This document shows, piece by piece, positions 1 through 17,327 of a DNA stretch of 17,327 nt; positions within the stretch are counted from its first letter, which is position 1, and every line of letters starts with the position of its first letter. The notes beneath the pieces are model-generated. The model did no database searches and was not told the DNA's origin. It was given only the letters and a program-made list of their open reading frames with translations. Source of the DNA: Atribacterota bacterium (GTDB lineage Bacteria; Atribacterota; Phoenicimicrobiia; Phoenicimicrobiales; Phoenicimicrobiaceae); the NCBI GenBank assembly GCA_038203565.1, contig JBBRDV010000027.1, positions 1 through 17,327 of the forward strand. The letters run 5' to 3'. A program made the translations under genes and the position numbers.

Positions 1-216
1 AAAGTTTTTTCTGTTGTCGGTATCGACTATACTGCGGCTATGGAGGGAATGTCCAGTGGAGACTTTTTGTTAGAGCCAATTTTTTATACCGTCTTTAGTT
101 TGGAGAATCTTGTTTTTTGCTTTGTATTAGGGGTAGTTGTAGTCACTATTGCCTGTATCATTCCGGCAAGGAAGGCCGCTAAACTTGAACCAACCGAAGC
201 CTTACGGCAAATATAA
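1..216 (+). CDS. ABC transporter permease, FtsX/LolE/MacB family, C-terminal part (5' truncated by window)
   Basis: Frame 1 is open from base 1 to TAA at 214-216: KVFSVVGIDY...FVLGVVVVTIACIIPARKAAKLEPTEALRQI*. The PARKAAKLEP.EALR ending is typical of FtsX-like permeases. Not in the ORF track. Confidence 0.9.
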   Translation, partial: KVFSVVGIDYTAAMEGMSSGDFLLEPIFYTVFSLENLVFCFVLGVVVVTIACIIPARKAAKLEPTEALRQI

Positions 217-2627: not shown

Positions 2628-3569
2628 ATGTTTAAGTCTATTATATGTAAACTTTTAGGAATAAAATACCCGCTTATTCAGGGAGGGATGGCCTGGATTG
2701 CCGATGCTGAACTTGCCTCAGCAGTATCCAATGCCGGTGCTCTTGGAGTTATTGCTGCCGGTTATGCTCCGGGTGAATGGATTAGAGAAGAGATTCAAAA
2801 AACAAAAAAGCTAACCGAAAAACCCTTCGGACTCAATATTATGCTCTTAAATCCTAATGCAGATGAAATTGCCCGCATAGCTGTTGATGAAGGAGTAAAA
2901 GTAGTAATTACCGGTGCAGGAAACCCTGGTAAATATATAAAAATGTGGAAAGAAAATAATATTTTGGTATTTCCGGTAATTCCTTCAGTTGCTCTGGCTG
3001 TGCGAATGGAGAGAGCAGGAGTAGATGCAGTAATTGCAGAAGGTGGTGAAGCTGGAGGACATGTGGGGGAATTGACTACCATGACTCTTATCCCTCAAGT
3101 AGCAGATGCGATAAATATTCCGGTTCTGGCTGCCGGAGGAATTGCCGATGGCCGCGGTTTAGCAGCTGCCTGGATGTTAGGAGCTTTGGGATTTCAAATA
3201 GGTACCAGGTTTCTGGTCGCTTATGAATGTAATGTTCATACGAATTATAAGCAAAAGATACTTGCTGCCAAAGATACCAGCACCATAGTTACCGGAAGGC
3301 CAACCGGTCACCCGGTTCGGATAATAAAAAACAGGTTGGCAAGGGATTTCCAGGCGATGGAAAAAAGAAATGCCTCTTTAGAAGAATATGAAGAATTAGG
3401 GAAAGGTTCGCTTTATCGATCTGCCCGAGAAGGCGATATGGATTATGGTTCGATAATGGCCGGACAGTCAGCCGGTCTGGTGAAAAAAGAGCAAAGCTGC
3501 AAAGAAATAATTGAAGAAATATTTTTAGAAGCGGAAAAAATAATTTTAGAAAAAAGTAAATTAATTTAA
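2628..3569 (+). CDS. fabK: Enoyl-ACP reductase II (FMN-dependent)
   Basis: LLGIKYPLIQGGMAW, TGAGNP, EGGEAGGHVGELTTMTLIPQV, AAGGIADGRG, TGHPVR and MAGQSAGLV match FabK. Confidence 0.92.
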   Translation: MFKSIICKLLGIKYPLIQGGMAWIADAELASAVSNAGALGVIAAGYAPGEWIREEIQKTKKLTEKPFGLNIMLLNPNADEIARIAVDEGVKVVITGAGNPGKYIKMWKENNILVFPVIPSVALAVRMERAGVDAVIAEGGEAGGHVGELTTMTLIPQVADAINIPVLAAGGIADGRGLAAAWMLGALGFQIGTRFLVAYECNVHTNYKQKILAAKDTSTIVTGRPTGHPVRIIKNRLARDFQAMEKRNASLEEYEELGKGSLYRSAREGDMDYGSIMAGQSAGLVKKEQSCKEIIEEIFLEAEKIILEKSKLI

Positions 3570-3585
3570 CAATATTTTATTGATA

Positions 3586-3637
3586 TTAAGGAGAAGGTTA
3601 TAGGCAAGGAATGCGGTATTGATTTTATTAAATCATT
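3586..3637 (+). pseudogene. Eroded remnant of a fabF 5' end
   Basis: 3610-3637 matches fabF 6110-6137 at 26/28 nt, with both differences at synonymous positions (CGIDFIKS). It is preceded by TAAGGAGA and GTTATAGGCAA fragments that also occur at the fabF start. Confidence 0.65.
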
Positions 3638-3658
3638 ATCTGCAAAGGAGTTATACAG

Positions 3659-4762
3659 ATGAGCTTCAAAAAAATTCCCAAATTAAAAATAGGTAACTTG
3701 GAGGCGAAAATTCCCATTATTCAAGGGGGAATGGCTGTGGGAATCTCTTTATCAAGTTTAGCGTCTGCTGTGGCAAATGCAGGGGGTATCGGAGTTATAG
3801 GAACTGCCGGGATAGGTATGCTTGAACCTGACTTTGCTAAAAATTTTACTCAGGCGAATAAAAGAGCTTTACGTAAAGTAATAAGAAAAGCAAAAGAGAT
3901 GACCAAGGGTATTATCGGAGTAAATATAATGGCTGCTCTTTCGGATTTTTATGATATGGTCAAGATTGCAGTAGAGGAAAAGGCAGATTTAGTATTTATT
4001 GGAGCAGGTTTACCTTTAAGGGGTCTGGAAGTGCTGGTGCCTGATAAATTAAAAAAAAATATAACTAAAGTTGTTCCTATTGTATCATCTTCGCGGGCTG
4101 CAAAAATTATATTCCAATACTGGCAAAAAAATTATCATTACGTGCCTGATGTTGTCGTTGTTGAAGGACCATTAGCCGGCGGACACCTGGGTTTTAAAAA
4201 AGAGCAGATTGATAACCCGGATTTTGCTTTAGAAAAAATATTACCTGAAGTGATTTCCGTGATAAAACCTTACGAAAACGAATTTGATAAAAATATTCCG
4301 GTAATTGCCGCAGGAGGTATATATACCGGTGCAGATATTTACAAATATATTCAGTTAGGAGCTCAGGGAGTGCAGATGGCTACCAGATTTGTGGCTACTC
4401 ATGAATGCGATGCTTCTATCAAATTTAAAGAAGCTTATTTTAAATGCCAAAAAAATGACTTAATGATCATTGATAGTCCGGTTGGATTACCGGGAAGAGC
4501 AATAAAGAACAAATTTTTGGAAGAGGTTTCATCCGGGGTTAGAAAACCTTTTAAGTGTCCCTGGAAATGTTTAAAGACTTGTAATTTTAAAAATGCACCT
4601 TACTGCATCGCCCTTGCCCTAACTAATGCCCAACAAGGAAAATTTGACGATGGATTTGCTTTTGCAGGAAGCAATGCTTATCGGGTGGATAAGCTTATTT
4701 CAGTTAAGGAACTTATTGCAAATCTATCAGAAGAATATGAAAAAGCTTCATACAATAAATAA
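3659..4762 (+). CDS. FabK/nitronate monooxygenase-family FMN enzyme, FabX-like with C-terminal Cys cluster
   Basis: PIIQGGMAVGIS, VVVEGPLAGGHLG, AAGGI, GVQMATRF, SPVGLPGRA and CPWKCLKTCNFKNAPYCI; RBS AAGGAG upstream. Confidence 0.85.
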   Translation: MSFKKIPKLKIGNLEAKIPIIQGGMAVGISLSSLASAVANAGGIGVIGTAGIGMLEPDFAKNFTQANKRALRKVIRKAKEMTKGIIGVNIMAALSDFYDMVKIAVEEKADLVFIGAGLPLRGLEVLVPDKLKKNITKVVPIVSSSRAAKIIFQYWQKNYHYVPDVVVVEGPLAGGHLGFKKEQIDNPDFALEKILPEVISVIKPYENEFDKNIPVIAAGGIYTGADIYKYIQLGAQGVQMATRFVATHECDASIKFKEAYFKCQKNDLMIIDSPVGLPGRAIKNKFLEEVSSGVRKPFKCPWKCLKTCNFKNAPYCIALALTNAQQGKFDDGFAFAGSNAYRVDKLISVKELIANLSEEYEKASYNK

Positions 4763-4847
4763 TTATTGATTAATTCCTGCTTTAGAAGATATCTTTTTTT
4801 GTATGCCGAGTCCCTTCAAAAATGCCCTAGATCTTTCTAAAAAAACA

Positions 4848-4876
4848 TTGACAAGGAATGGATTATTATTTATACT
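4848..4876 (+). promoter_or_regulatory. Sigma70/SigA promoter of fabH-fabF
   Basis: TTGACA (4848-4853), 17-nt spacer, TATACT (4871-4876). Confidence 0.85.
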
Positions 4877-4881
4877 TGCTT

Positions 4882-4898
4882 ATAATAATATGTCATAA
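4882..4898 (+). promoter_or_regulatory. Putative FapR-like operator, second copy
   Basis: ATAATAATATGTCATAA, 15/17 identical to 2548-2564 and at the same distance from the -10 box. Confidence 0.45.
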
Positions 4899-4989
4899 TA
4901 GCAGTTAATAAATAAATTGGCTATTTATGTATTTATGAAGTATTAGAAACTTTATTTTTGTAGATAAAGAATTATTAAAGGAAGGTAAC

Positions 4990-5973
4990 ATGGTTTATTC
5001 AAAAATAATTAGCACAGGCGCTTATGTCCCCCAGAGAATTGTAAAAAATGATGAGCTTTCCAAAATGGTAGAGACTAACGATGAGTGGATTACCTCCCGA
5101 ACAGGTATAAAACAAAGAAGAATCTCCTCAGGAGAAAAGACATATCAGATAGCCGCAAAAGCAGCAACAGAAGCAATTAAAAATGCTGGTATAGATAAAA
5201 AAGAGATCGACATGATTATATTAGCTACAATAACCCCCGACTTTTTTATGCCTTCAACTGCTAATCTTGTTCAGGCAGAATTAGGATTAGTTGATATTCC
5301 CAGCTTTGATATAGCAGCAGGCTGTACTGGTTTTGTTTACGGATTACAGATAGCCGATCAATTTATCAGATCAAAACAGAGTAAGACAATTCTGGTAATA
5401 GGAGCAGAAGTTTTATCAAAGGTCACTGATTGGTCAGATCGGAATACTTGCGTACTTTTTGGAGATGGTGCCGGGGCAGTAATTTTAAAGAGTTCCAGCC
5501 AAGAGGGCATTATTTGTACTTATACTGGTTCTCAAGGAGATTTACAGGAGTCTCTCACTCTTCCGGCAGTTCCCTTAAAAAATCCTTTTTTGCAGGTTCA
5601 AAATAATAATGGAAAATCTAGCAATATATCTATGAACGGAAAAGAAGTATTTCAATTTGCTATTAGAGTAATGATAAAGAGTATTTCCCAGGTCCTAAAT
5701 AAGTCTAATCTTTCTATGGACGATATTGATTATATTATTCCCCATCAAGCTAATATTCGCATTATTGATTATGTTGCCCGGGAACTAAAGATTGAACGAG
5801 AAAAATTCATTATTAATTTAGACCGTTTTGGAAATACTTCTTCTGCCAGTATTCCGCTTGCTTTAGATGAAGCCCACAAGAAAAAAATATTTTCCCCGGG
5901 GAATCGGGTGATAATGGTTGCCTTTGGCGGCGGATTAACCTGGGGAGCTGTATTATCAAAATGGACAATGTAG
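4990..5973 (+). CDS. fabH: 3-oxoacyl-ACP synthase III
   Basis: WITSRTGIKQRR, catalytic Cys in AAGCTGF, DRNTCVLFGDGAGA, PHQAN, GNTSSASIP, FGGGLTWG. Confidence 0.96.
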   Translation: MVYSKIISTGAYVPQRIVKNDELSKMVETNDEWITSRTGIKQRRISSGEKTYQIAAKAATEAIKNAGIDKKEIDMIILATITPDFFMPSTANLVQAELGLVDIPSFDIAAGCTGFVYGLQIADQFIRSKQSKTILVIGAEVLSKVTDWSDRNTCVLFGDGAGAVILKSSSQEGIICTYTGSQGDLQESLTLPAVPLKNPFLQVQNNNGKSSNISMNGKEVFQFAIRVMIKSISQVLNKSNLSMDDIDYIIPHQANIRIIDYVARELKIEREKFIINLDRFGNTSSASIPLALDEAHKKKIFSPGNRVIMVAFGGGLTWGAVLSKWTM

Positions 5974-6018
5974 CTCAAATATTGATAGAAGACTAGTAAT
6001 ATAAGGAGAGTGAAAGAT

Positions 6019-7257
6019 TTGAAAAATAGAGTTGTTATAACCGGAATGGGAGCAATTACTCCGATAGGCAATAATGTTAAAACTTTCTGGGAAAATATAA
6101 AAAAAGGTAAATGTGGAATTGATTTTATTAAATCATTTGATACCTCCGAATTTAAGGTGAAAATAGCTGCAGAAATTAAAAATTTCAATCCTGCTGATGT
6201 TTTGGATTCTAAGGAATTAAAAAGGATGGATAGGTTCACCCAGATGGGGATAGTAGCTGCAAATGAGGCAGTGAATGATGCAGGATTAAGCAATGAAGGC
6301 GATTCCCGGGAAAATTGGGGAATTATTTTAGGCACCGGTATAGGGGGCTTTATTACTATTGAAAAAGAAAATCGAAAAATTATCGAAAAAGGGCCGGGAC
6401 GCGTATCTCCTTTTTTTATTCCTATGGCTCTTTGCAATATTGCTGCAGCAAATATTGCTATTAAATTTGGAATAAAAGGGATATGTGATACTGTAATAAC
6501 TGCCTGTGCTTCCGGTACATCGTCTATTGGGAATGCTTATCGTATTTTACAGCAGAATCAAGCGGATTTAATTATTGCCGGCGGTTCTGAGGCAGCAATG
6601 ACTCCACTGGCATTAGCCGGATTTACCTCGATGGGAGCTTTGTGTACTCACAATAAAGCGGAACAAGCTTCCATTCCCTTTGATATCCGAAGAACAGGGT
6701 TTGTAATGGGAGAAGGGTCCGGTATATTGATTTTAGAAACATTAGAGCATGCTCAAAAAAGAGGGGCAAATATTTATGCTGAGGTAGTAGGATATGGGAC
6801 TACCTGTGATGCTTACCACATAACTTCTCCTGCACCCGGAGGGAATGGCGGAGCAAGAGCAATGAGAATGGCTATTAATGATTCGGGTATCAATAAAGAA
6901 GAGATATCTTACATCAATGCTCATGGAACCAGCACTACTTATAATGATAAATGCGAAACCGAAGCAATAAAAACGGTATTTGGCGAAAAGGCATATGATA
7001 TTCCGATAAGTTCTACCAAGTCAATGACCGGGCATATGCTTGGCGCTTCGGGGGCAGCAGAAGCCATTGTCTGTATTAAAGCCATGCAGGAAAGTTTTAT
7101 TCCTCCTACCATAGGGCTGCAAGAGCAAGATCCGGAATGTGATCTGGATTATGTGCCACTTCAAGGAAGGAATCAAAATTTACAATATACTATTTCCAAT
7201 TCATTTGGATTTGGCGGGCAAAATGCCAGTATACTATTGAAAAAATGGGAAGAATAA
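6019..7257 (+). CDS. fabF: 3-oxoacyl-ACP synthase II
   Basis: RVVITGMG, TACASG, GFVMGEGSG, INAHGTST, STKSMTGHMLGA, SNSFGFGG. TTG at 6019 is better spaced from RBS AAGGAG than GTG at 6010. Confidence 0.96.
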   Translation: MKNRVVITGMGAITPIGNNVKTFWENIKKGKCGIDFIKSFDTSEFKVKIAAEIKNFNPADVLDSKELKRMDRFTQMGIVAANEAVNDAGLSNEGDSRENWGIILGTGIGGFITIEKENRKIIEKGPGRVSPFFIPMALCNIAAANIAIKFGIKGICDTVITACASGTSSIGNAYRILQQNQADLIIAGGSEAAMTPLALAGFTSMGALCTHNKAEQASIPFDIRRTGFVMGEGSGILILETLEHAQKRGANIYAEVVGYGTTCDAYHITSPAPGGNGGARAMRMAINDSGINKEEISYINAHGTSTTYNDKCETEAIKTVFGEKAYDIPISSTKSMTGHMLGASGAAEAIVCIKAMQESFIPPTIGLQEQDPECDLDYVPLQGRNQNLQYTISNSFGFGGQNASILLKKWEE

Positions 7258-7281
7258 GAGCATTAAGGAGTGAATGAGACG

Positions 7282-7863
7282 ATGGTTCTAAAAGTTGTGG
7301 GGATTGTAAGTAGTCCCAGGAAAGAGATGAACACTGATACCTTTGTAACAAAAGCCCTGGAAGGTGCCCGGTCCGTCGGTGCAGAAACAGAAAAAATCTA
7401 CCTCAATGATCTGGAAATAAAGCCCTGTCAAGCCTGTGACCGGTTTCCCGCCCCTGATTATTGCTTCTACAAAGATGGGATGGAAAAAATATATGATGCC
7501 CTTGCCACCGCTGATGCTCTGGTTATTGGGGCTCCTGCATATTTTAGTTCCTTCAGCGCTCAGCTCAAATTGCTCATTGATCGCTCAAATTGCCTGGCGG
7601 AGATGGTTACACTCCCGGATGGTAAATTGATATTCAAGTCGAGGTTGAAGAAAAAAAAGAAAGGTATCTTTATCTGGGTGGCTAACATATCAAAAAATCC
7701 TGAACACGCACTGGTATCTCTAAGAATCTGGTGCAAATATTTCGCCAATGTTGAGTTAGTAGATACTTTAGTTATTACGGACTCTGACCATGGAGAAGGT
7801 GCCAGAAAGCGAGAAGAACTGCTCCACAAAGCTTTTGAATTCGGGGTATCATTGGGACAATGA
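7282..7863 (+). CDS. Flavodoxin-fold / iron-sulfur flavoprotein (Isf, WrbA-like) family protein
   Basis: SSPRKEMNT, IKPCQACDRFPAPDYC, ADALVIGAPAY and SAQLKLLIDR. GTG at 7270 overlaps the RBS, so ATG at 7282 is the likelier start. Confidence 0.85.
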   Translation: MVLKVVGIVSSPRKEMNTDTFVTKALEGARSVGAETEKIYLNDLEIKPCQACDRFPAPDYCFYKDGMEKIYDALATADALVIGAPAYFSSFSAQLKLLIDRSNCLAEMVTLPDGKLIFKSRLKKKKKGIFIWVANISKNPEHALVSLRIWCKYFANVELVDTLVITDSDHGEGARKREELLHKAFEFGVSLGQ

Positions 7864-7918
7864 TGCAACTTCTGCGTATTTTTTCTTTGAAAAGCAGGCA
7901 GCTCCCTCAGGAGGTAGA

Positions 7919-8590
7919 ATCATAAAAATTAAAAAGATAATACGTTCAAAGAGAAAAAGTATTGCGATGTATATAAATGAAGATGCTGTATTAATAGTGA
8001 GAGCGCCTTTTCATGCCAGTGAAGAAGTGATAAATAAAATGGTTTTAAAATATAAGGAAAGATTGGAGAAAACGCAAAAAGAAGTTAAGTTAAGGAATTT
8101 GAAATTTAATAAAAAGGAATTTGTCAGTGGAGAAAGATTCCTTTATCTGGGGGATTATTACCATTTAAAGTTAGTGGATAATCGAGAAATTCTACTGGAT
8201 CTTCAAGATGAATTTTTACTTTCAAAAAAATATTTATCCTACGCGAAGAATATTTTTATTCTTTGGTATAAGAGAAGAGCCTATGAAACCATATCTGAGA
8301 GGATTAAATTATATGCACAAAAAAGGGGATTTGAATATAATAAAATAAATATCACTCATGCACAAAAGAGATGGGGTTCTTGCTCTCACCATGGCAATCT
8401 AAGTTTTTCCTGGCGATTAATTATGGCTCCTTTACCTATCATAGATTCTGTTGTTATTCATGAGCTCGCACACCTTGAAGTGAAAAATCATTCAAAGGCA
8501 TTTTGGAATAAAGTGGGAATCTTAGACCCGGAATATAAAGAACATAAAGATTGGTTAAAAAATAATGGCTATTTATTGAGGTTGGAATAA
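7919..8590 (+). CDS. YgjP/DUF45 (M48-like, SprT-like) metal-dependent hydrolase
   Basis: IRSKRKSIA, LIVRAP, GERFLYLG, KRWGSCS, LSFSWRLIMAP and VIHELAHLEVKNHSKAFW. The start is uncertain: the strong RBS AGGAGGT (7909-7915) is followed only by ATC/ATA/ATT in frame. Confidence 0.85.
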   Translation: MIKIKKIIRSKRKSIAMYINEDAVLIVRAPFHASEEVINKMVLKYKERLEKTQKEVKLRNLKFNKKEFVSGERFLYLGDYYHLKLVDNREILLDLQDEFLLSKKYLSYAKNIFILWYKRRAYETISERIKLYAQKRGFEYNKINITHAQKRWGSCSHHGNLSFSWRLIMAPLPIIDSVVIHELAHLEVKNHSKAFWNKVGILDPEYKEHKDWLKNNGYLLRLE

Positions 8591-10433: not shown

Positions 10434-10736
10434 GGAACTTTTTTTCAATTATTTTTTTCACGAGGCCTATTTCAAAATATAAAAAGTGCACCGATTGAGG
10501 CAACACTTGCCATTATTTATATGGGTATTTTCCCGGCTGCCTTGGCTTATATTACCTGGGCCTATGTCCTTTCCCGAATCCCAGCTTCTTTAGCCGGGAG
10601 TTATCTTTATTTATCTCCGGTATTAGCCATATTAATTGCCTGGATATGGTTAGGAGAAATACCTTTCTTTTTATCATTAACGGGAGGGTTTCTTGCTCTG
10701 GCCGGGGTAATCATTGTGAATGTTTGGGGGAGATGA
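10434..10736 (+). pseudogene. 5'-truncated EamA/DMT transporter remnant
   Basis: The frame extends upstream of ATG 10521 (GTFFQLFFSRGLFQNIKSAPIEATLAIIY) only to an in-frame TAA at 10425-10427, and no RBS is evident. It covers only the last ~100 aa of a ~300-aa EamA (LAYITW, YLSPVLAILIAWIWLGE). Confidence 0.75.
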
Positions 10737-10887: not shown

Positions 10888-12690
10888 GTGAGGGAAATTA
10901 AATCAAAATTGACCATAGGTTTCATATTATTAATCATTATAATAATATTTTCTTTTACTAATTTGCTTATTTATGCGGAGCAGAGTTTTGAAATAACTGA
11001 TTATCAAGCACGGGTAAAGATATTAGAAAATGGTGATATTAAGGTAAGCGAAATTTTTGAGTATGATTTTGATGGCGATTTTAATGGCATAATAAGGACT
11101 ATAGGAACAAAAGGATCGGATGGGCTGCAGTATTTCAAGGCTTCTGAATATCTCCCCACGGATAAAGAATTAAATTATGACCAAAGCACTACAGGGGATA
11201 CGGTCACTTATAAAATTTACGATACATCCAGCAATGAAAGAAAATTGTTTTTACTGGAATACCAGTTAAAAAATGTTGCAACTTTATATAATGATACCGC
11301 AGAATTTTATTGGAAATTTTTTGATCAGTCCAATACTTCCCCCATCGGACATATGAAGATAGAAGTAGAGCTTCCGTCTGCAGAAGTCTCAGCAGAAGAA
11401 TTGAAAGTGTTTGGACATGGTCCCTTAAATGGAAAAGTATCTATCCTGGAGGACGGAAAAATAGCATATGAGATTTTTGGATTGTCTTCAGGAGAAATGG
11501 TGGAAGCAAGAATTTTATTTCCTACCAGTATGATTCCTGATAGTAGAAAAATAATTAATCAGAATAAATTTGCTGAAATAATGAAAGAGGAATTAGGATG
11601 GGCTAAAAAAGCAGATCGAGGGAAAGGGTTCAACATCATAGTTATCTTATTAATTCCATTGGCAGTTTTATTTAATATATTCCAGGCTATTCGGCTTTAT
11701 TTTAAATATGATAGGGAACTTAAACCCGAAGTTGAAATGGATTATTACCGTGAATTACCCCAGGATATTACACCCGCAGTTTTAAGTAAATTAATGAGTA
11801 TCCAGGGGGTAGGTAGTAAAGATATTATGGCAACTTTGATGGACCTGGTGCGTAAAAAATATTTAAAGATTGAAGAAATTCAATTAGGAAGAAAGAAAGA
11901 TTATAAATTTATATTAATCAAGAGTGATACCAAGAATTTAAAAGAACATGAATCATATTTAATCCAATGGCTTTTTTATTCTATCGGTGATGGAACGAGT
12001 GTAACTCTAAAAGAAATACAAGATTATGCTAAGGCATCAAAAACCCAGAACAGTTTTCGGAGCAATTATTATAAATGGGTGAAAAAAGTGGGAGAGGAAT
12101 TTAAAAAATACAATTATTTTGGTGAATCGAAAGAAGGATTGAGAGCCGCAGGTAAGGTATTTTTAATGGAATTGGCTGCCATATTTTTATTGTTTGTTCT
12201 AGGGATCCTGTTAAGAGTACAGATATTTATTCTAATACCCTTATTTTTTACTGTCATCTTCACTGGTTTTGCGGTGATAGTCTATGGAGCAGTATTAAGA
12301 AAAAAGACTCAGACGGGAGTTAATGAATATACCAAATGGAGGGCATTTAAGCAATTCTTATTACATTTTAGCAATATGAAGGATTACGAAATCCCTTCTA
12401 TAGTAGTTTGGGAGCATTATCTGGTTTACGCTATCTCTCTGGGAGTGGCAGATAAAGTCATTTCAAAATTAAAACTGGTCATAAGTAATCAGGATATATC
12501 CTTAGGGAATTCTACCTACTTATACTTTATGACTGATAGAAGCGGACGATTGAATAATAGTATGTTCAAGTCTTTTGATTCAGTATTCAGTTCGGCTTTT
12601 ACCACGACAAGTTCTTCAACTGGTTCCGGCGGCGGTTTCTCCTCTGGAGGTGGCGGTGGCGGTGGCGGAGGCGGTGCCGGCGCTTTTTAA
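10888..12690 (+). CDS. DUF2207 family membrane protein
   Basis: Signal or anchor helix, YNDTAEFYWKF, FGHGPLNG, YYRELP, ATLMDLVRKKYL, WEHYLVYAISLGVA and a Gly/Ser-rich tail GGGFSSGGGGGGGGGGAGAF. Confidence 0.9.
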   Translation: MREIKSKLTIGFILLIIIIIFSFTNLLIYAEQSFEITDYQARVKILENGDIKVSEIFEYDFDGDFNGIIRTIGTKGSDGLQYFKASEYLPTDKELNYDQSTTGDTVTYKIYDTSSNERKLFLLEYQLKNVATLYNDTAEFYWKFFDQSNTSPIGHMKIEVELPSAEVSAEELKVFGHGPLNGKVSILEDGKIAYEIFGLSSGEMVEARILFPTSMIPDSRKIINQNKFAEIMKEELGWAKKADRGKGFNIIVILLIPLAVLFNIFQAIRLYFKYDRELKPEVEMDYYRELPQDITPAVLSKLMSIQGVGSKDIMATLMDLVRKKYLKIEEIQLGRKKDYKFILIKSDTKNLKEHESYLIQWLFYSIGDGTSVTLKEIQDYAKASKTQNSFRSNYYKWVKKVGEEFKKYNYFGESKEGLRAAGKVFLMELAAIFLLFVLGILLRVQIFILIPLFFTVIFTGFAVIVYGAVLRKKTQTGVNEYTKWRAFKQFLLHFSNMKDYEIPSIVVWEHYLVYAISLGVADKVISKLKLVISNQDISLGNSTYLYFMTDRSGRLNNSMFKSFDSVFSSAFTTTSSSTGSGGGFSSGGGGGGGGGGAGAF

Positions 12691-12729
12691 ATAATTTGTA
12701 AAAATAAAAAAAGAGAAAGGGGTGTTTTT

Positions 12730-13272
12730 ATGAGTTTTATAATGATTTTTCTTATTCTGATTGTAGCATGGGGGGTTTTAACTTACAATAAACTGGTAAC
12801 CTTGAGAGGTAGAATAGATAATTCCTGGGCACAGATCGATGTTCAGCTAAAAAGAAGGTTTGATTTAATTCCTAATCTGGTAAGCTCTGTAAAAGGATAC
12901 GCCAAGCATGAGAAAGAAACATTAGAAGAAGTTACTGCATCCAGAACCAAATATTTATCAGCAACAACACCGGAAGAAAAATTAGGAGCAAATTCAGAGC
13001 TAGCCGGTGCCCTGAGTCGATTATTTGCAGTTGCTGAAAATTATCCGGATTTAAAGGCCAATGCAAACTTCCTGGATTTACAAGCACAACTGAAAGATAC
13101 CGAAGATAAGATAAGCTATTCAAGACAATTCTATAATGATACTGCTATGAAATATAATATAGTGATAGTCCAAGTACCAACTTCAATAGTTGCCAATCTG
13201 TTCGGTTTTACCAGCAGGCCTTATTTTAAAACAGAAGGAGAAGAAAGAGAAAACGTTGAAGTAAAATTTTAA
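12730..13272 (+). CDS. lemA: LemA family protein
   Basis: N-terminal TM helix, YNKLV, WAQIDVQLKRRFDLIPNLV, AVAENYPDLKANANF, EDKISYSRQFYND. Confidence 0.95.
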   Translation: MSFIMIFLILIVAWGVLTYNKLVTLRGRIDNSWAQIDVQLKRRFDLIPNLVSSVKGYAKHEKETLEEVTASRTKYLSATTPEEKLGANSELAGALSRLFAVAENYPDLKANANFLDLQAQLKDTEDKISYSRQFYNDTAMKYNIVIVQVPTSIVANLFGFTSRPYFKTEGEERENVEVKF

Positions 13273-14467: not shown

Positions 14468-15409
14468 TTGAAAACTTTCTTAAAAAACAATACTACTTAT
14501 ATAAAATTATTTCTGGTAGCCTTATTCTTCGGAGGCACCTTTATTGCCGGGAGGATAATGGCAGCAAACCTACCTCCTTTCACTTCAGCTTTTTTACGCT
14601 TCCTATTAGCTTCTTTCTTTTTGGTTTTATTTGTCTTTAAAATTTATGGTAAATTCCCCCGGGTTAACTTTTCACAATTCTTATTGGTTATAGCTCTCGC
14701 ACTTACCGGGATTGTGGGTTATAATTTCCTCTTTTTCTCGGGATTAAAACATATTACAGCCAGCAGGGCATCCATGATTGTTTCTTTGAATCCCTCCCTA
14801 ATTACTATACTTTCGGTGTTGATATTTAAAGATAAATTTACTAAATTTAAATTTACAGGGATTATTCTTTCTCTAACCGGGGCATTAATAGTGATTTCTC
14901 AGGGCAATCTCCAGGTTATTTTACAAGGCAATATTGGATGGGGGGAATTATTTATATTGGGATGTGTGGTCTGTTGGGCTTCCTTTACGGTGCTTGGTAA
15001 AATTATAATGAAAGACCTAAAGCCAATTATAGCCATAACCTATGCCTGCCTAGCCGGAACTTTAATTTTAATTTTACCCGCTTATCAGGAAGGAGTGCTT
15101 CAAAATTTTATGCAATATAGTTTAGAAGTATGGTTGAGTGTTTTTGTTTTAGGATTTTTGGGAACTGTTTTAGCCTTTACCTGGTTCTATGAAGGAATTG
15201 ATAAAATTGGCCCTTCTCGGGCTGGAATATTTATTAATTTTGTGCCCATCTTTGCTACTTTGATGGCCATTCTAATTCTCCACGAAAAATTATCTTCTTC
15301 TCTTGTTATCGGGGCAATCTTCGTAGTCAGCGGAGTATATCTAACCAATTATCAGGTAAAAAATATTAAAATAGAGAAAGATGAAGAAGTAAAAGTTTTA
15401 GAAAAATAG
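14468..15409 (+). CDS. EamA/DMT family transporter
   Basis: About 10 hydrophobic segments in two EamA repeats (FGGTFIAGR, AFLRF, IGPSRAGIFINFVP, LHE); TTG start after GGGAG. Confidence 0.92.
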   Translation: MKTFLKNNTTYIKLFLVALFFGGTFIAGRIMAANLPPFTSAFLRFLLASFFLVLFVFKIYGKFPRVNFSQFLLVIALALTGIVGYNFLFFSGLKHITASRASMIVSLNPSLITILSVLIFKDKFTKFKFTGIILSLTGALIVISQGNLQVILQGNIGWGELFILGCVVCWASFTVLGKIIMKDLKPIIAITYACLAGTLILILPAYQEGVLQNFMQYSLEVWLSVFVLGFLGTVLAFTWFYEGIDKIGPSRAGIFINFVPIFATLMAILILHEKLSSSLVIGAIFVVSGVYLTNYQVKNIKIEKDEEVKVLEK

Positions 15410-15841: not shown

Positions 15842-17020
15842 ATGAATTTATTTATAAATATTATTTCAATAGCAGGACCATTAATATTTGCTGCCGGCAT
15901 CTTTACCCTAAAAAATATACCCGCAGAAATGAAAATAGGGCTATGGATTGTCTGTGCTTTAATACTCGTATTTGATCTATATTTAATCATAAAGGATAAA
16001 AAGAATAAAGAAGAAAAGACTAAAAGAGAAGACCTATATAATCGTCTATACCAAAGGCAGGAATTATTCGACAGAAACATACCGGGAACAGTGACTGATG
16101 TCCTGGAAAGAAATCCTTTATTAAAAGAATCTTTCCGCTCAGGACAAAACCATGAGAAAGAATATAAATTTGAAGAAGCTATTAAAGTATATGAAAAATG
16201 TCTGCATGATTTAAGTATCCCCGAGGAAGATAAAATTGGCTTTAATATCCTTATTGGCAACTGTTATTATTTTTTATCTAAACTGAACGAAGCGGAAAAG
16301 CATTTTAAAGAATCATTAAATATTTTAAAAAGAGCAGAAAATAAAATTGCGAAATTGCCAGCCAAATCAGCTGCCCTCGGCAATATCGGAAACATCTACC
16401 ATAACTTAGGCAAACCAGATGAAGCATTAGAATATTATCAGCAGGCCTTGGAGATTAACAGAAAGCTCGGATACGAACAAGGTGTTGCCCATAGTCTTAA
16501 CAATATAGGTACCCTATACAATGAATTAGGTAAATATGATGAAGCCTTAAACTGCCAAAAAGAGGCCTTAGAGATTAGTCAGAAATTCAAAGATGAACAA
16601 GCCATAGCCAACAGTCTGACCAATATTGGAATAATATATACTGATTCAGGAAAACCTGAAGAAGGATTAAAGCTTTTTCAAGAAGCCTTAGAGATGAATG
16701 AAAAGAATAAATCCCAGGAAGGAATAGCCAATGTTTTTAATAATATTGGCCTGGCTCACAGTAATTTAGGAGAAACTGATCAAGCCCTAAATGATTATCA
16801 AAAAGCACTAGTTATAAATAAAAAAATAGGATATAAAGAAGGGGTAGCCACTAATTTGGGAAACATCGGCCTGATTTATATTACTTTAGGTAAACCCGAA
16901 GAAGCAATCAAGTATTATCAAGAGGCGTTGGATATATTTATACAGATGAATGCTCATCCGCGGATAGAAATATTATTAAGGCTGATTAAAATTATCCAGG
17001 AAGAAAAAAGGGAAAAGTAA
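15842..17020 (+). CDS. Membrane-anchored tetratricopeptide repeat protein
   Basis: Two N-terminal hydrophobic helices, then about 7 TPRs. Five have an exact 40-aa period (L.NIG..Y..LG..+EAL..YQ.AL.I). RBS AAGGAG. Confidence 0.9.
   Translation: MNLFINIISIAGPLIFAAGIFTLKNIPAEMKIGLWIVCALILVFDLYLIIKDKKNKEEKTKREDLYNRLYQRQELFDRNIPGTVTDVLERNPLLKESFRSGQNHEKEYKFEEAIKVYEKCLHDLSIPEEDKIGFNILIGNCYYFLSKLNEAEKHFKESLNILKRAENKIAKLPAKSAALGNIGNIYHNLGKPDEALEYYQQALEINRKLGYEQGVAHSLNNIGTLYNELGKYDEALNCQKEALEISQKFKDEQAIANSLTNIGIIYTDSGKPEEGLKLFQEALEMNEKNKSQEGIANVFNNIGLAHSNLGETDQALNDYQKALVINKKIGYKEGVATNLGNIGLIYITLGKPEEAIKYYQEALDIFIQMNAHPRIEILLRLIKIIQEEKREK
16370..16969 (+). repeat. Five diverged 120-bp coding repeats (TPR units)
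   Basis: NIG-encoding motifs (AAYATYGG) recur at 120-bp intervals from about 16382. Confidence 0.8.
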
Positions 17021-17048
17021 AAAATATTTTTAAGATGGAGATGATCAT

Positions 17049-17327
17049 ATGTCATTAGGAATAAACACTACCACCCCGGAAGGAATTGTTCTAGCTGCTG
17101 ACAGCCGGCAATCCTACCGCAACCGAAAAGGGATAGCTCGCATCGGAAGCGATAATGCTTCCAAACTTTTCCAATTAAACAAAAGGATAGGGGTAATTGT
17201 AACTGGTCTGGCTTTTTTACCGGAAGATGGGGTGATGAAAAGTGTCAGTAAATTTATCGAGCAGTTTAAAAGGGATACTGAAGTAGAAAAATTGAACGTA
17301 AGAGATGCAGCAGATAGGTTGCACAGT
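17049..17327 (+). CDS. Proteasome-beta/HslV-like Ntn-hydrolase, N-terminal part (3' truncated by window)
   Basis: GGAG RBS 8 nt before ATG 17049; open to the window end: MSLGINTTTPEGIVLAADSRQSYRNRKGIARIGSDNASKLFQLNKRIGVIVTGLAFLPEDGVMKSVSKFIEQFKRD... G(I/V)VLAADxR followed by K(L/I)F is the proteasome-beta signature. Not in the ORF track. Confidence 0.8.
   Translation, partial: MSLGINTTTPEGIVLAADSRQSYRNRKGIARIGSDNASKLFQLNKRIGVIVTGLAFLPEDGVMKSVSKFIEQFKRDTEVEKLNVRDAADRLHS

Follow-up and report, generated by a model that had tools for sequence, protein, structure and literature searches.

A truncated gene for a predicted stand-alone proteasome-like hydrolase of the PMI group at a contig end of an Atribacterota genome

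Which enzyme is encoded by the incomplete gene at the end of contig JBBRDV010000027.1 of an Atribacterota bacterium (assembly GCA_038203565.1)? The stretch analyzed here, referred to as the window, is this whole contig (C27 of a 218-contig assembly) with a length of 17,327 nucleotides. On its forward strand an open reading frame (ORF) starts with an ATG at position 17049 and continues over 93 codons without a stop to the last base of the window (17327), and is therefore cut by the contig end. Translation from this ATG reads MSLGINTTTPEGIVLAADSRQSYRNRKGIARIGSDNASKLFQLNKRIGVIVTGLAF... A preliminary description had taken the product for a proteasome-beta-like hydrolase of the N-terminal nucleophile (Ntn) type with Ser as the first mature residue. 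Based on our analysis we consider it probable that the ORF is the truncated gene for a stand-alone Ser1 hydrolase of approximately 316-319 aa, which would belong to the PMI group of proteasome homologues (most likely PMI-3) and act as a homodimer without an ATPase partner. PMI stands for 'Proteasome homolog with Multiple Insertions' (PMC8665760).

The mature numbering, with the initiator Met removed, is S1, G11-I-V-L-A-A-D17-S-R19, K38-L-F and T51-G52, and the translation agrees exactly with the positions that had been claimed for S1, D17-S-R19, K38 and G52. In the proteasome, the alpha-amino group and the hydroxyl of residue 1 act in catalysis, Lys33 and Asp17 form a proton relay and Gly47 provides the oxyanion hole. 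Methionine aminopeptidase strips Met before Ser or Thr. Upstream of the ATG the frame is open for only 5 codons (98 aa in total) before an in-frame stop, which leaves no space for a propeptide. Two further ATGs in the vicinity, at 17035 and 17041, are out of frame. The same start is found in the close relatives. Among the 120 close matches listed, 116 started with MSL and 2 with MTL, with Asp at position 18 (Met counted), while one of the remaining two lacked the motif and the other was N-terminally cut. The propeptide-free start of the preliminary description was thus confirmed.

The ORF is more than a chance reading frame, since orthologues were found in 22 of 40 related genomes (E 1e-33 to 1e-54) and the register of nucleophile and Asp was fixed. 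With the own genome (G000) included, a match to the 93 residues was present in 23 of the 41 genomes searched and in 13 of the 20 high-quality ones. Same-genus copies shared 89-95% identity over the 93 residues and were intact, without a stop. Where the contigs permit, full-length orthologous frames had 317-332 aa; the two that were translated yielded 316 and 319 aa. Retrieval of the full gene, which had been proposed, therefore succeeded for the relatives but not for the genome itself: a search of the 218-contig assembly with the 319-aa orthologue matched just the 93 codons.

Conservation is concentrated at the positions named above. In an alignment of 54 sequences, D18, S19, R20, D35, K39 and G53 (Met counted) were conserved to at least 90%, and D18, S19 and R20 were invariant across 18 full-length sequences. 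Together with Ser or Thr as the first mature residue in 118 of the 120 listed close matches, this is in agreement with the catalytic residues Ser1, Asp17 and Lys38 proposed before. The wider family comprised 1976 proteins at E <= 1e-3 among 3586 candidates. At the level of 50%-identity representatives there were 923 at E <= 1e-3, 320 of them at <= 1e-10. Among 150 listed representatives, 83 carried Asp at position 18 (45 with Ser and 38 with Thr at position 2) and 14 had another offset; the motif was missing from the first 40 residues of the other 53, mostly fragments.

The relationship to the proteasome was recognized by comparison of profiles and structures. Single-protein searches of the PDB gave chance-level matches only (a response regulator, E 0.083 and 0.87). 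The family profile, in turn, matched 210 PDB chains; the 60 shown were all proteasome subunits, with a best E of 1.7e-5. In the profile alignment, residue 2 falls on Thr1, and Lys and Gly are displaced by 5 residues, as had been noticed before, owing to insertions of 1 + 4 residues between Arg19 and Lys. Furthermore, many members of the wider family have a precomputed match to Pfam PF00227. In the ESM Atlas, unnamed clusters with partial PF00227 labels only were found.

Fold, insertions and dimer were modelled on the 319-aa orthologue (P0003), which comes from another genome and is 94% identical over the 93 residues. The AlphaFold2 model reached a predicted local distance difference test (pLDDT) value of 92.9 and a predicted template modelling (pTM) score of 0.89. 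Its fold is an alpha-beta-beta-alpha Ntn core with proteasome topology. The top Foldseek match was the 20S beta subunit of T. acidophilum (E 8.6e-8). A structure search with VIA-align over 48,161 representative chains, independent of Foldseek, placed residues 2..305 of the model on 1..191 of a 20S beta chain (Z 19.9, root mean square deviation 2.6, 184 aligned residues), followed by Anbu (Z 19.4), HslV (15.1), BPH (13.9) and connectase (12.1). Other Ntn amidases remained below Z 12, with 11.6 for acid ceramidase, 11.5 for NAAA and approximately 8.7 for penicillin acylases. Both the proteasome-beta-like nature of the protein and the replacement of Thr1 by Ser were hereby borne out.

The helices of the model are H1 (66-76), H2 (84-99), H3 (200-207) and H4 (249-268), and the C-terminal end consists of short strands. 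Two insertions interrupt the core. The one after H2 (about 100-151) contains a helix (101-118) and a three-stranded sheet (strands 122-150) and is missing from relatives of 250-290 aa in the 54-sequence alignment. The one between H3 and H4 (about 208-248) holds three short helices at 211-236.

Modelling of oligomers, as the preliminary description had suggested, led to a predicted two-fold homodimer through the face formed by H3, the insertion and H4, which is new here. Two copies of the 319-aa orthologue were co-folded with its alignment, next to three controls. The homodimer scored 0.60 and the best control 0.27. Of the proteins that served as a rough calibration, 20 of the 30 with a solved structure of two identical chains reached the 0.60 mark, as did 1 of the 23 with a single-chain structure. 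The dimer runs agreed in at least 97% of contacts, with a partner pLDDT of at least 85. The modelled interface is symmetric and spans residues 201-278 (H3, the H3/H4 insertion, H4 and the following loop); it includes the strongly conserved positions R204, G208, D210 and G272.

The distribution of the family was studied with a profile of the 18 full-length sequences, which found 212 loci, the best 80 of which were kept. These 80 belonged to Atribacterota, the Candidate Phyla Radiation (CPR), Methanobacteriaceae, Desulfobacteraceae and a few other metagenome-assembled genomes (MAGs). One relative (L085) is located in the complete genome of a cultured organism, Methanobacterium ferruginis NBRC 105197. 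Outside the own clade, the identity to the query within this set was 58-77%. A second Atribacterota clade, which includes loci of the sister family of the same order, was only 60-63% identical to the query, and the copies in Clostridia, Saccharibacteria and Heimdallarchaeota MAGs were 74-77% identical. A tree was built from 57 of the 80 proteins, after thinning of 23 Methanobacteriaceae rows; in it, Atribacterota fell into two separate clades (3 changes needed; starred branches force at least 2) and Methanobacteriaceae formed one clade, with a poorly resolved backbone. The identity pattern suggests horizontal transfer or old paralogy, and mis-binning of some MAG contigs is possible. None of 75 candidate stretches of viral contigs held a relative, nor did a search of 50,697 phage records reveal one. 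A phage origin of the subfamily was also considered and was rejected: a match to PHROGs phrog_5990 was partial (E 5.6e-10, 27 residues of a 427-position profile), and viral and phage DNA yielded no relative.

Where does this family belong among the proteasome homologues already described? Fuchs, Alva and Lupas (2021, Bioinformatics, PMC8665760) reported 22 new proteasome homologues from sequence searches. Their paper describes PMI variants without a propeptide, a long insertion after H1/H2 (third insertion site) in PMI-3 and PMI-4, and an insertion between H3/H4 (fourth site) in PMI-2 to PMI-6. According to its Table 1, PMI-3 ranges over Proteobacteria, other bacteria and Euryarchaeota, with no phages, and comprises 28 sequences in nr90 and 11 in nr70. 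PMI-4 is described as larger and more diverse, with phages included. The representatives given there are OGZ26396.1 for PMI-3 and HDY66466.1 for PMI-4.

Measured against these descriptions, the present family resembles PMI-3 in its Ser/Thr1-Asp17-Lys33-Gly47 active site, the absence of a propeptide and the presence of both insertions. Additionally, the diversity is very low in either case, with a drop from 28 (nr90) to 11 (nr70) sequences in the paper and 58-77% identity across phyla here. The range is likewise similar, with 'other bacteria', deltaproteobacterial MAGs and Euryarchaeota but not phages. PMI-4 shares both insertion sites as well; its occurrence in phages, as reported there, is unlike the present family. 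No difference from PMI-3 was demonstrated on the basis of that paper, and the Clostridia, Omnitrophota and Heimdallarchaeota MAGs found here post-date it. Because of both insertions, the absent propeptide and the spread over Atribacterota, CPR and Methanobacterium without phages, we file the family under PMI, most likely PMI-3, as far as the architecture and distribution given in the paper define these groups. A full-text literature search from 2021 on found no experimental characterization of PMI, the 2021 paper itself being the sole relevant item. It is likely that the family was already catalogued computationally in 2021, apparently without experimental test, and that it is not a new kind of protein. 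The preliminary description had expected a poorly characterised family and would have given way to a placement inside a characterised one. The earlier cataloguing as PMI lowers the novelty of that reading but leaves the reading itself intact.

The protein can also be compared with the named members of the superfamily. The 20S beta subunit (PF00227; T. acidophilum 1PMA/6BDF) is the best structural match, and both have the nucleophile at mature position 1 and equivalents of Asp17, Arg19, Lys33 and Gly47. The present protein differs in having Ser rather than Thr, no propeptide, approximately 110 extra residues in two insertions and a hairpin that is 5 residues longer. A 20S alpha subunit was not encountered: the PF00227 search of the assembly (99% complete) gave just this gene and HslV. 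HslV is likewise a bacterial Ntn hydrolase of the proteasome family, but it is compact (approximately 175 aa, no insertions, Thr1 after a short propeptide, hslU adjacent) compared with 316-319 aa and two insertions here. The real HslV of the genome is a separate gene of 173-176 aa with the mature start TTIL after MFKG. It lies on the minus strand of contig C1 (68498-72016), where an xerC-like integrase, hslV and an AAA_2 ATPase (hslU-like) follow in a row. The distinction from HslV made in the preliminary description is therefore correct.

The distinction from Anbu is probably correct as well. Anbu (5LOY) is a near-equal fold match and also a bacterial stand-alone homologue without propeptide or ATPase. 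Its N-terminus is different, the PMI insertions are absent from it according to PMC8665760, and in that paper PMI and Anbu form separate clusters, each connecting to WPH. Concerning the long C-terminal H5 coiled coil of the Anbu type, the model has no long C-terminal helix; this comparison is a structural one alone (Z 19.4).

Connectase (MJ0548 / MM_2909; 6ZW0) shares with the present family a Ser1 or Thr1 nucleophile, exposed by Met removal in connectase and presumably here, and the lack of an ATPase (PMC7980362, PMC8665760). The preliminary description had pointed to Ser1 in archaeal connectases, and Ser1 is indeed reported as the working nucleophile of the M. jannaschii enzyme (PMC7980362). 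Connectase is described as monomeric and outside a ring particle, and the present family is likewise predicted not to form rings. Connectase has lost H1/H2 and carries a two-helix lid between S3 and S4 (PMC8665760), whereas the family studied here retains H1/H2 and has other insertions and no lid; within the first 65 residues of the model there is no helical insertion. Among the proteasome homologues compared, connectase was the most distant fold match.

These comparisons bear on two other ways to understand the protein. It could be a self-compartmentalising protease that assembles into stacked rings, as HslV, BPH and the 20S core do, the modelled dimer contact then being a trans-ring contact. 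The closest folds are 20S beta and Anbu (Z 19.9 and 19.4), both of which form rings, the model contains H1/H2 and H3/H4, the helices of ring and trans-ring contacts, and the predicted two-fold interface lies on the H3/H4 face that joins proteasome beta rings (PMC8665760). We nevertheless regard a ring as unlikely, because the insertion of approximately 52 residues sits at the 'pore loop' site, where the authors of that paper argue for a clash in a PMI-3/4 ring, and because no unfoldase gene was conserved beside the gene in 80 loci. Quite unlikely, in our judgement, is a sequence-specific transpeptidase or protein ligase of the connectase kind, in which a second protein, instead of water, would resolve the Ser1 acyl-enzyme with its amino group. 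The Ser1 nucleophile of the M. jannaschii connectase (PMC7980362), the absence of propeptide and ATPase partner together with a predicted non-compartmentalised active site, and a variable gene directly upstream in several lineages would all fit a ligase, as would the 58-77% identity between bacterial phyla and archaea, which is expected for recognition of a fixed motif. However, connectase was the farthest of the proteasome homologues compared (Z 12.1 versus 19.9), the model lacks its signature of S3-S4 lid and H1/H2 loss and instead shows both helices and a hairpin extended by just 5 residues, and no candidate substrate was common across lineages. The preliminary description had offered protease or transpeptidase. 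The proteasome-like part of this inference stood. The transpeptidase is its weaker half, since in structure connectase matches less closely than 20S beta and Anbu do.

Since many Ntn hydrolases act on small molecules, an amidase for a lipid amide, an acylated metabolite or a cell-wall peptide has to be weighed as well. The core fold is common to acid ceramidase, NAAA and penicillin acylases, and in one Atribacterota family the neighbours are lgt, lit and murD, that is housekeeping, lipoprotein and murein genes. An amidase is improbable nonetheless: the matches to proteasome subunits in sequence and structure are far stronger, the Asp17/Lys33/Gly47 constellation belongs to the peptide-cleaving proteasome family, and the neighbourhood is not conserved across phyla. 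Finally, with 93 codons visible and the remainder not in the 218-contig assembly, this copy could be a dead fragment or pseudogene, the working gene being present in relatives only. Such a case is highly improbable given that the window is a whole contig and contigs of other runs continue (a near-identical one by 115 letters), that the fragment shares 89-95% identity with the intact orthologues of the genus, without a stop, and that the branch point at 17272 described below is an ordinary assembly reason for a break.

DNA contigs in 4 of 4 public runs extended beyond 17327. Position 17272 is the place where DNA and RNA-library contigs of several runs leave the window sequence, with a common loose-end sequence. 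It looks like a branch point of strain variants and is probably the reason for the contig end 55 nt farther on. Metatranscriptome contigs of relatives spanned 17043-17327 in four runs of three studies, which documents presence in RNA libraries and is not proof of transcription.

Several points weigh against the assignment to a dimeric PMI enzyme. The match to PF00227 reached 19.7 bits for the fragment, and 19.7-20.1 bits with the two full-length orthologues included, below the gathering cut-off of 22.4; for TIGR03634 (NCBIfam) the values were 18.9 bits versus a cut-off of 224. The profile comparison with the HslV of the same genome gave no significant alignment (probability 0.2), so that counterparts of Ser129, Asp166 and Ser169 could not be placed. 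OGZ26396.1 and HDY66466.1 did not occur in the 20 clusters examined, and PMI-3 was separated from PMI-4 by description only. Only 93 of approximately 316 codons lie in the window, and the presumed intactness of this copy downstream rests on the orthologues. Regarding the dimer, the score is a model confidence and the calibration counts are rough, since our own alignment was used. Solved proteasomes, too, use the H3/H4 face for their trans-ring contact, and this likeness may contribute to the score. Furthermore, the predicted dimer would be compatible with larger assemblies, two copies being all that was modelled.

The features of the gene and its upstream neighbour are listed in Table 1.

Table 1. 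Positions of the truncated hydrolase gene, its key codons and the adjacent gene in the window
Feature	Position	Strand	Basis
Truncated 5' part of a PMI-type proteasome-beta-like Ntn hydrolase gene	17049..17327	+	ORF call, orthologues, weak PF00227 match
Ser codon TCA, predicted N-terminal nucleophile after Met removal	17052..17054	+	aligned to Thr1 of mature 20S beta by profile and structure
Asp-Ser-Arg codons (D17-S18-R19), counterparts of proteasome Asp17/Arg19; Asp is GAC at 17100-17102	17100..17108	+	conservation
Lys codon AAA (K38 mature), counterpart of proteasome Lys33; S2-S3 hairpin 5 residues longer	17163..17165	+	alignments
Gly codon GGT (G52 mature), counterpart of oxyanion-hole Gly47	17205..17207	+	alignments
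GGAG, likely ribosome-binding site 8 nt before the ATG	17037..17040	+	read from sequence, function inferred
Upstream neighbour, 392 aa, two N-terminal hydrophobic helices and five TPR_12 repeats	15842..17020	+	Pfam TPR_12 E 1.9e-73

The 889 neighbour ORFs of the 80 loci were clustered, and no partner common across phyla was found, lineage-specific ones only. No ATPase or unfoldase gene was a conserved neighbour in the 80 loci, and none was present in the window.

In the window, the gene for the tetratricopeptide repeat (TPR) protein ends 28 nt before the hydrolase gene. No terminator-like site was found between the two, and no listed RNA-library contig that would indicate co-transcription spans 17020-17049. 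In 10 loci of the own-genus clade the same gene, for a protein of 390-397 aa, is found at a distance of 27-28 nt upstream, which makes it a conserved neighbour in the genus only. The other two loci of this clade have an ankyrin-repeat protein and a GNAT protein, respectively, in this place. A paralogue of the TPR protein is present on contig C187 of the same genome (G000, L002 442-1761). It differs at the C-terminus, where another hydrophobic segment follows before the contig ends. The TPR protein is thus not unique to the locus.

Other lineages have other neighbours. A small membrane protein similar to DUF5518 (117-131 aa) is encoded directly upstream in 6 of 6 loci of the second Atribacterota clade (L082, L086, L087, L094, L098 and L103, at about 5590-5960). 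A DUF5518-like gene was also found at most three genes upstream in 4 Methanobacterium loci (L081, L083, L091, L092), so that this pairing recurs in both domains. In 8 CPR-type loci a protein consisting of a LexA DNA-binding domain only is encoded directly upstream, 1-16 nt from the PMI gene (PF01726, E 1e-12 to 1e-13). These are L049, L050, L084, L088, L099 and L102 (match at about 6001) as well as L048 and L104. The S24 peptidase domain was not detected in these LexA-type proteins, and their C-terminal part is short or unrelated. The position of a putative repressor without cleavage domain beside an Ntn hydrolase gene is suggestive, judged from sequence. A role in a defence system was considered too and was rejected: a PADLOC match of the hydrolase to ZorA was at chance level (E 0.016), the neighbour matched generic TPR models, and the neighbourhoods are of a housekeeping kind.

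The remainder of the window carries genes of various functions. A 369-aa ORF at 1300-2409 without a Pfam match at E <= 0.001 is located between a LolA-like gene and the genes of fatty-acid synthesis. The latter form a block at 2628-7257 with two NMO/FabK-like enoyl reductase genes (2628-3569 and 3659-4762), a FabH-type ketoacyl synthase III (4990-5973) and a FabF-type ketoacyl synthase (6010-7257). An FMN-reductase-like ORF (7270-7863) and a YgjP-like metallopeptidase ORF (7790-8590) overlap by 74 nt when the first start codons are used; the true start of the YgjP-like ORF is probably farther downstream. A 71-aa ORF at 10521-10736 corresponds to the C-terminal half of an EamA domain (profile positions 68-134) and is probably a remnant, and a full two-domain EamA gene is present at 14468-15409. 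The stretch between these, 10888-13272, encodes a DUF2207 membrane protein of 600 aa and, after it, a LemA family protein of 180 aa.

How could the enzyme work? Methionine aminopeptidase would remove the initiator Met and expose Ser1. As in the proteasome, Ser1 would then attack a peptide or amide carbonyl, most likely that of a peptide bond, with Lys38 and Asp17 as putative proton relay and Gly52 as putative oxyanion hole, and water would resolve the acyl-enzyme. Catalysis by Ser1, Asp17 and Lys38 is a prediction by analogy to the proteasome. Because the active site would be exposed, the protein is probably a substrate-specific enzyme and not a bulk degrader.

A more far-reaching and speculative idea, to which we give little credence, is that PMI-3 enzymes work as exposed Ser1 Ntn dimers on a single specific protein, cutting or ligating it, and that this protein is the product of the variable gene directly upstream. 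The substrate would then be the membrane-anchored TPR protein in the present genome and the DUF5518 membrane protein in other Atribacterota and some Methanobacterium. In CPR it would be the LexA-type DNA-binding domain, the Ntn enzyme supplying repressor cleavage in trans.

In summary, the preferred interpretation of the ORF as the truncated gene for a stand-alone, dimeric PMI enzyme implies for this Atribacterota genome that HslVU is accompanied by a second proteasome homologue of a very different kind. Across bacterial phyla and methanogenic archaea the family has retained 58-77% identity. New in this study are one truncated copy, the predicted dimer interface and the lineage-specific neighbours, which may serve as a guide to candidate substrates. 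Connectase is a precedent for unexpected and useful chemistry in a divergent stand-alone member of the superfamily, and PMI-3 is therefore a reasonable target for biochemistry.

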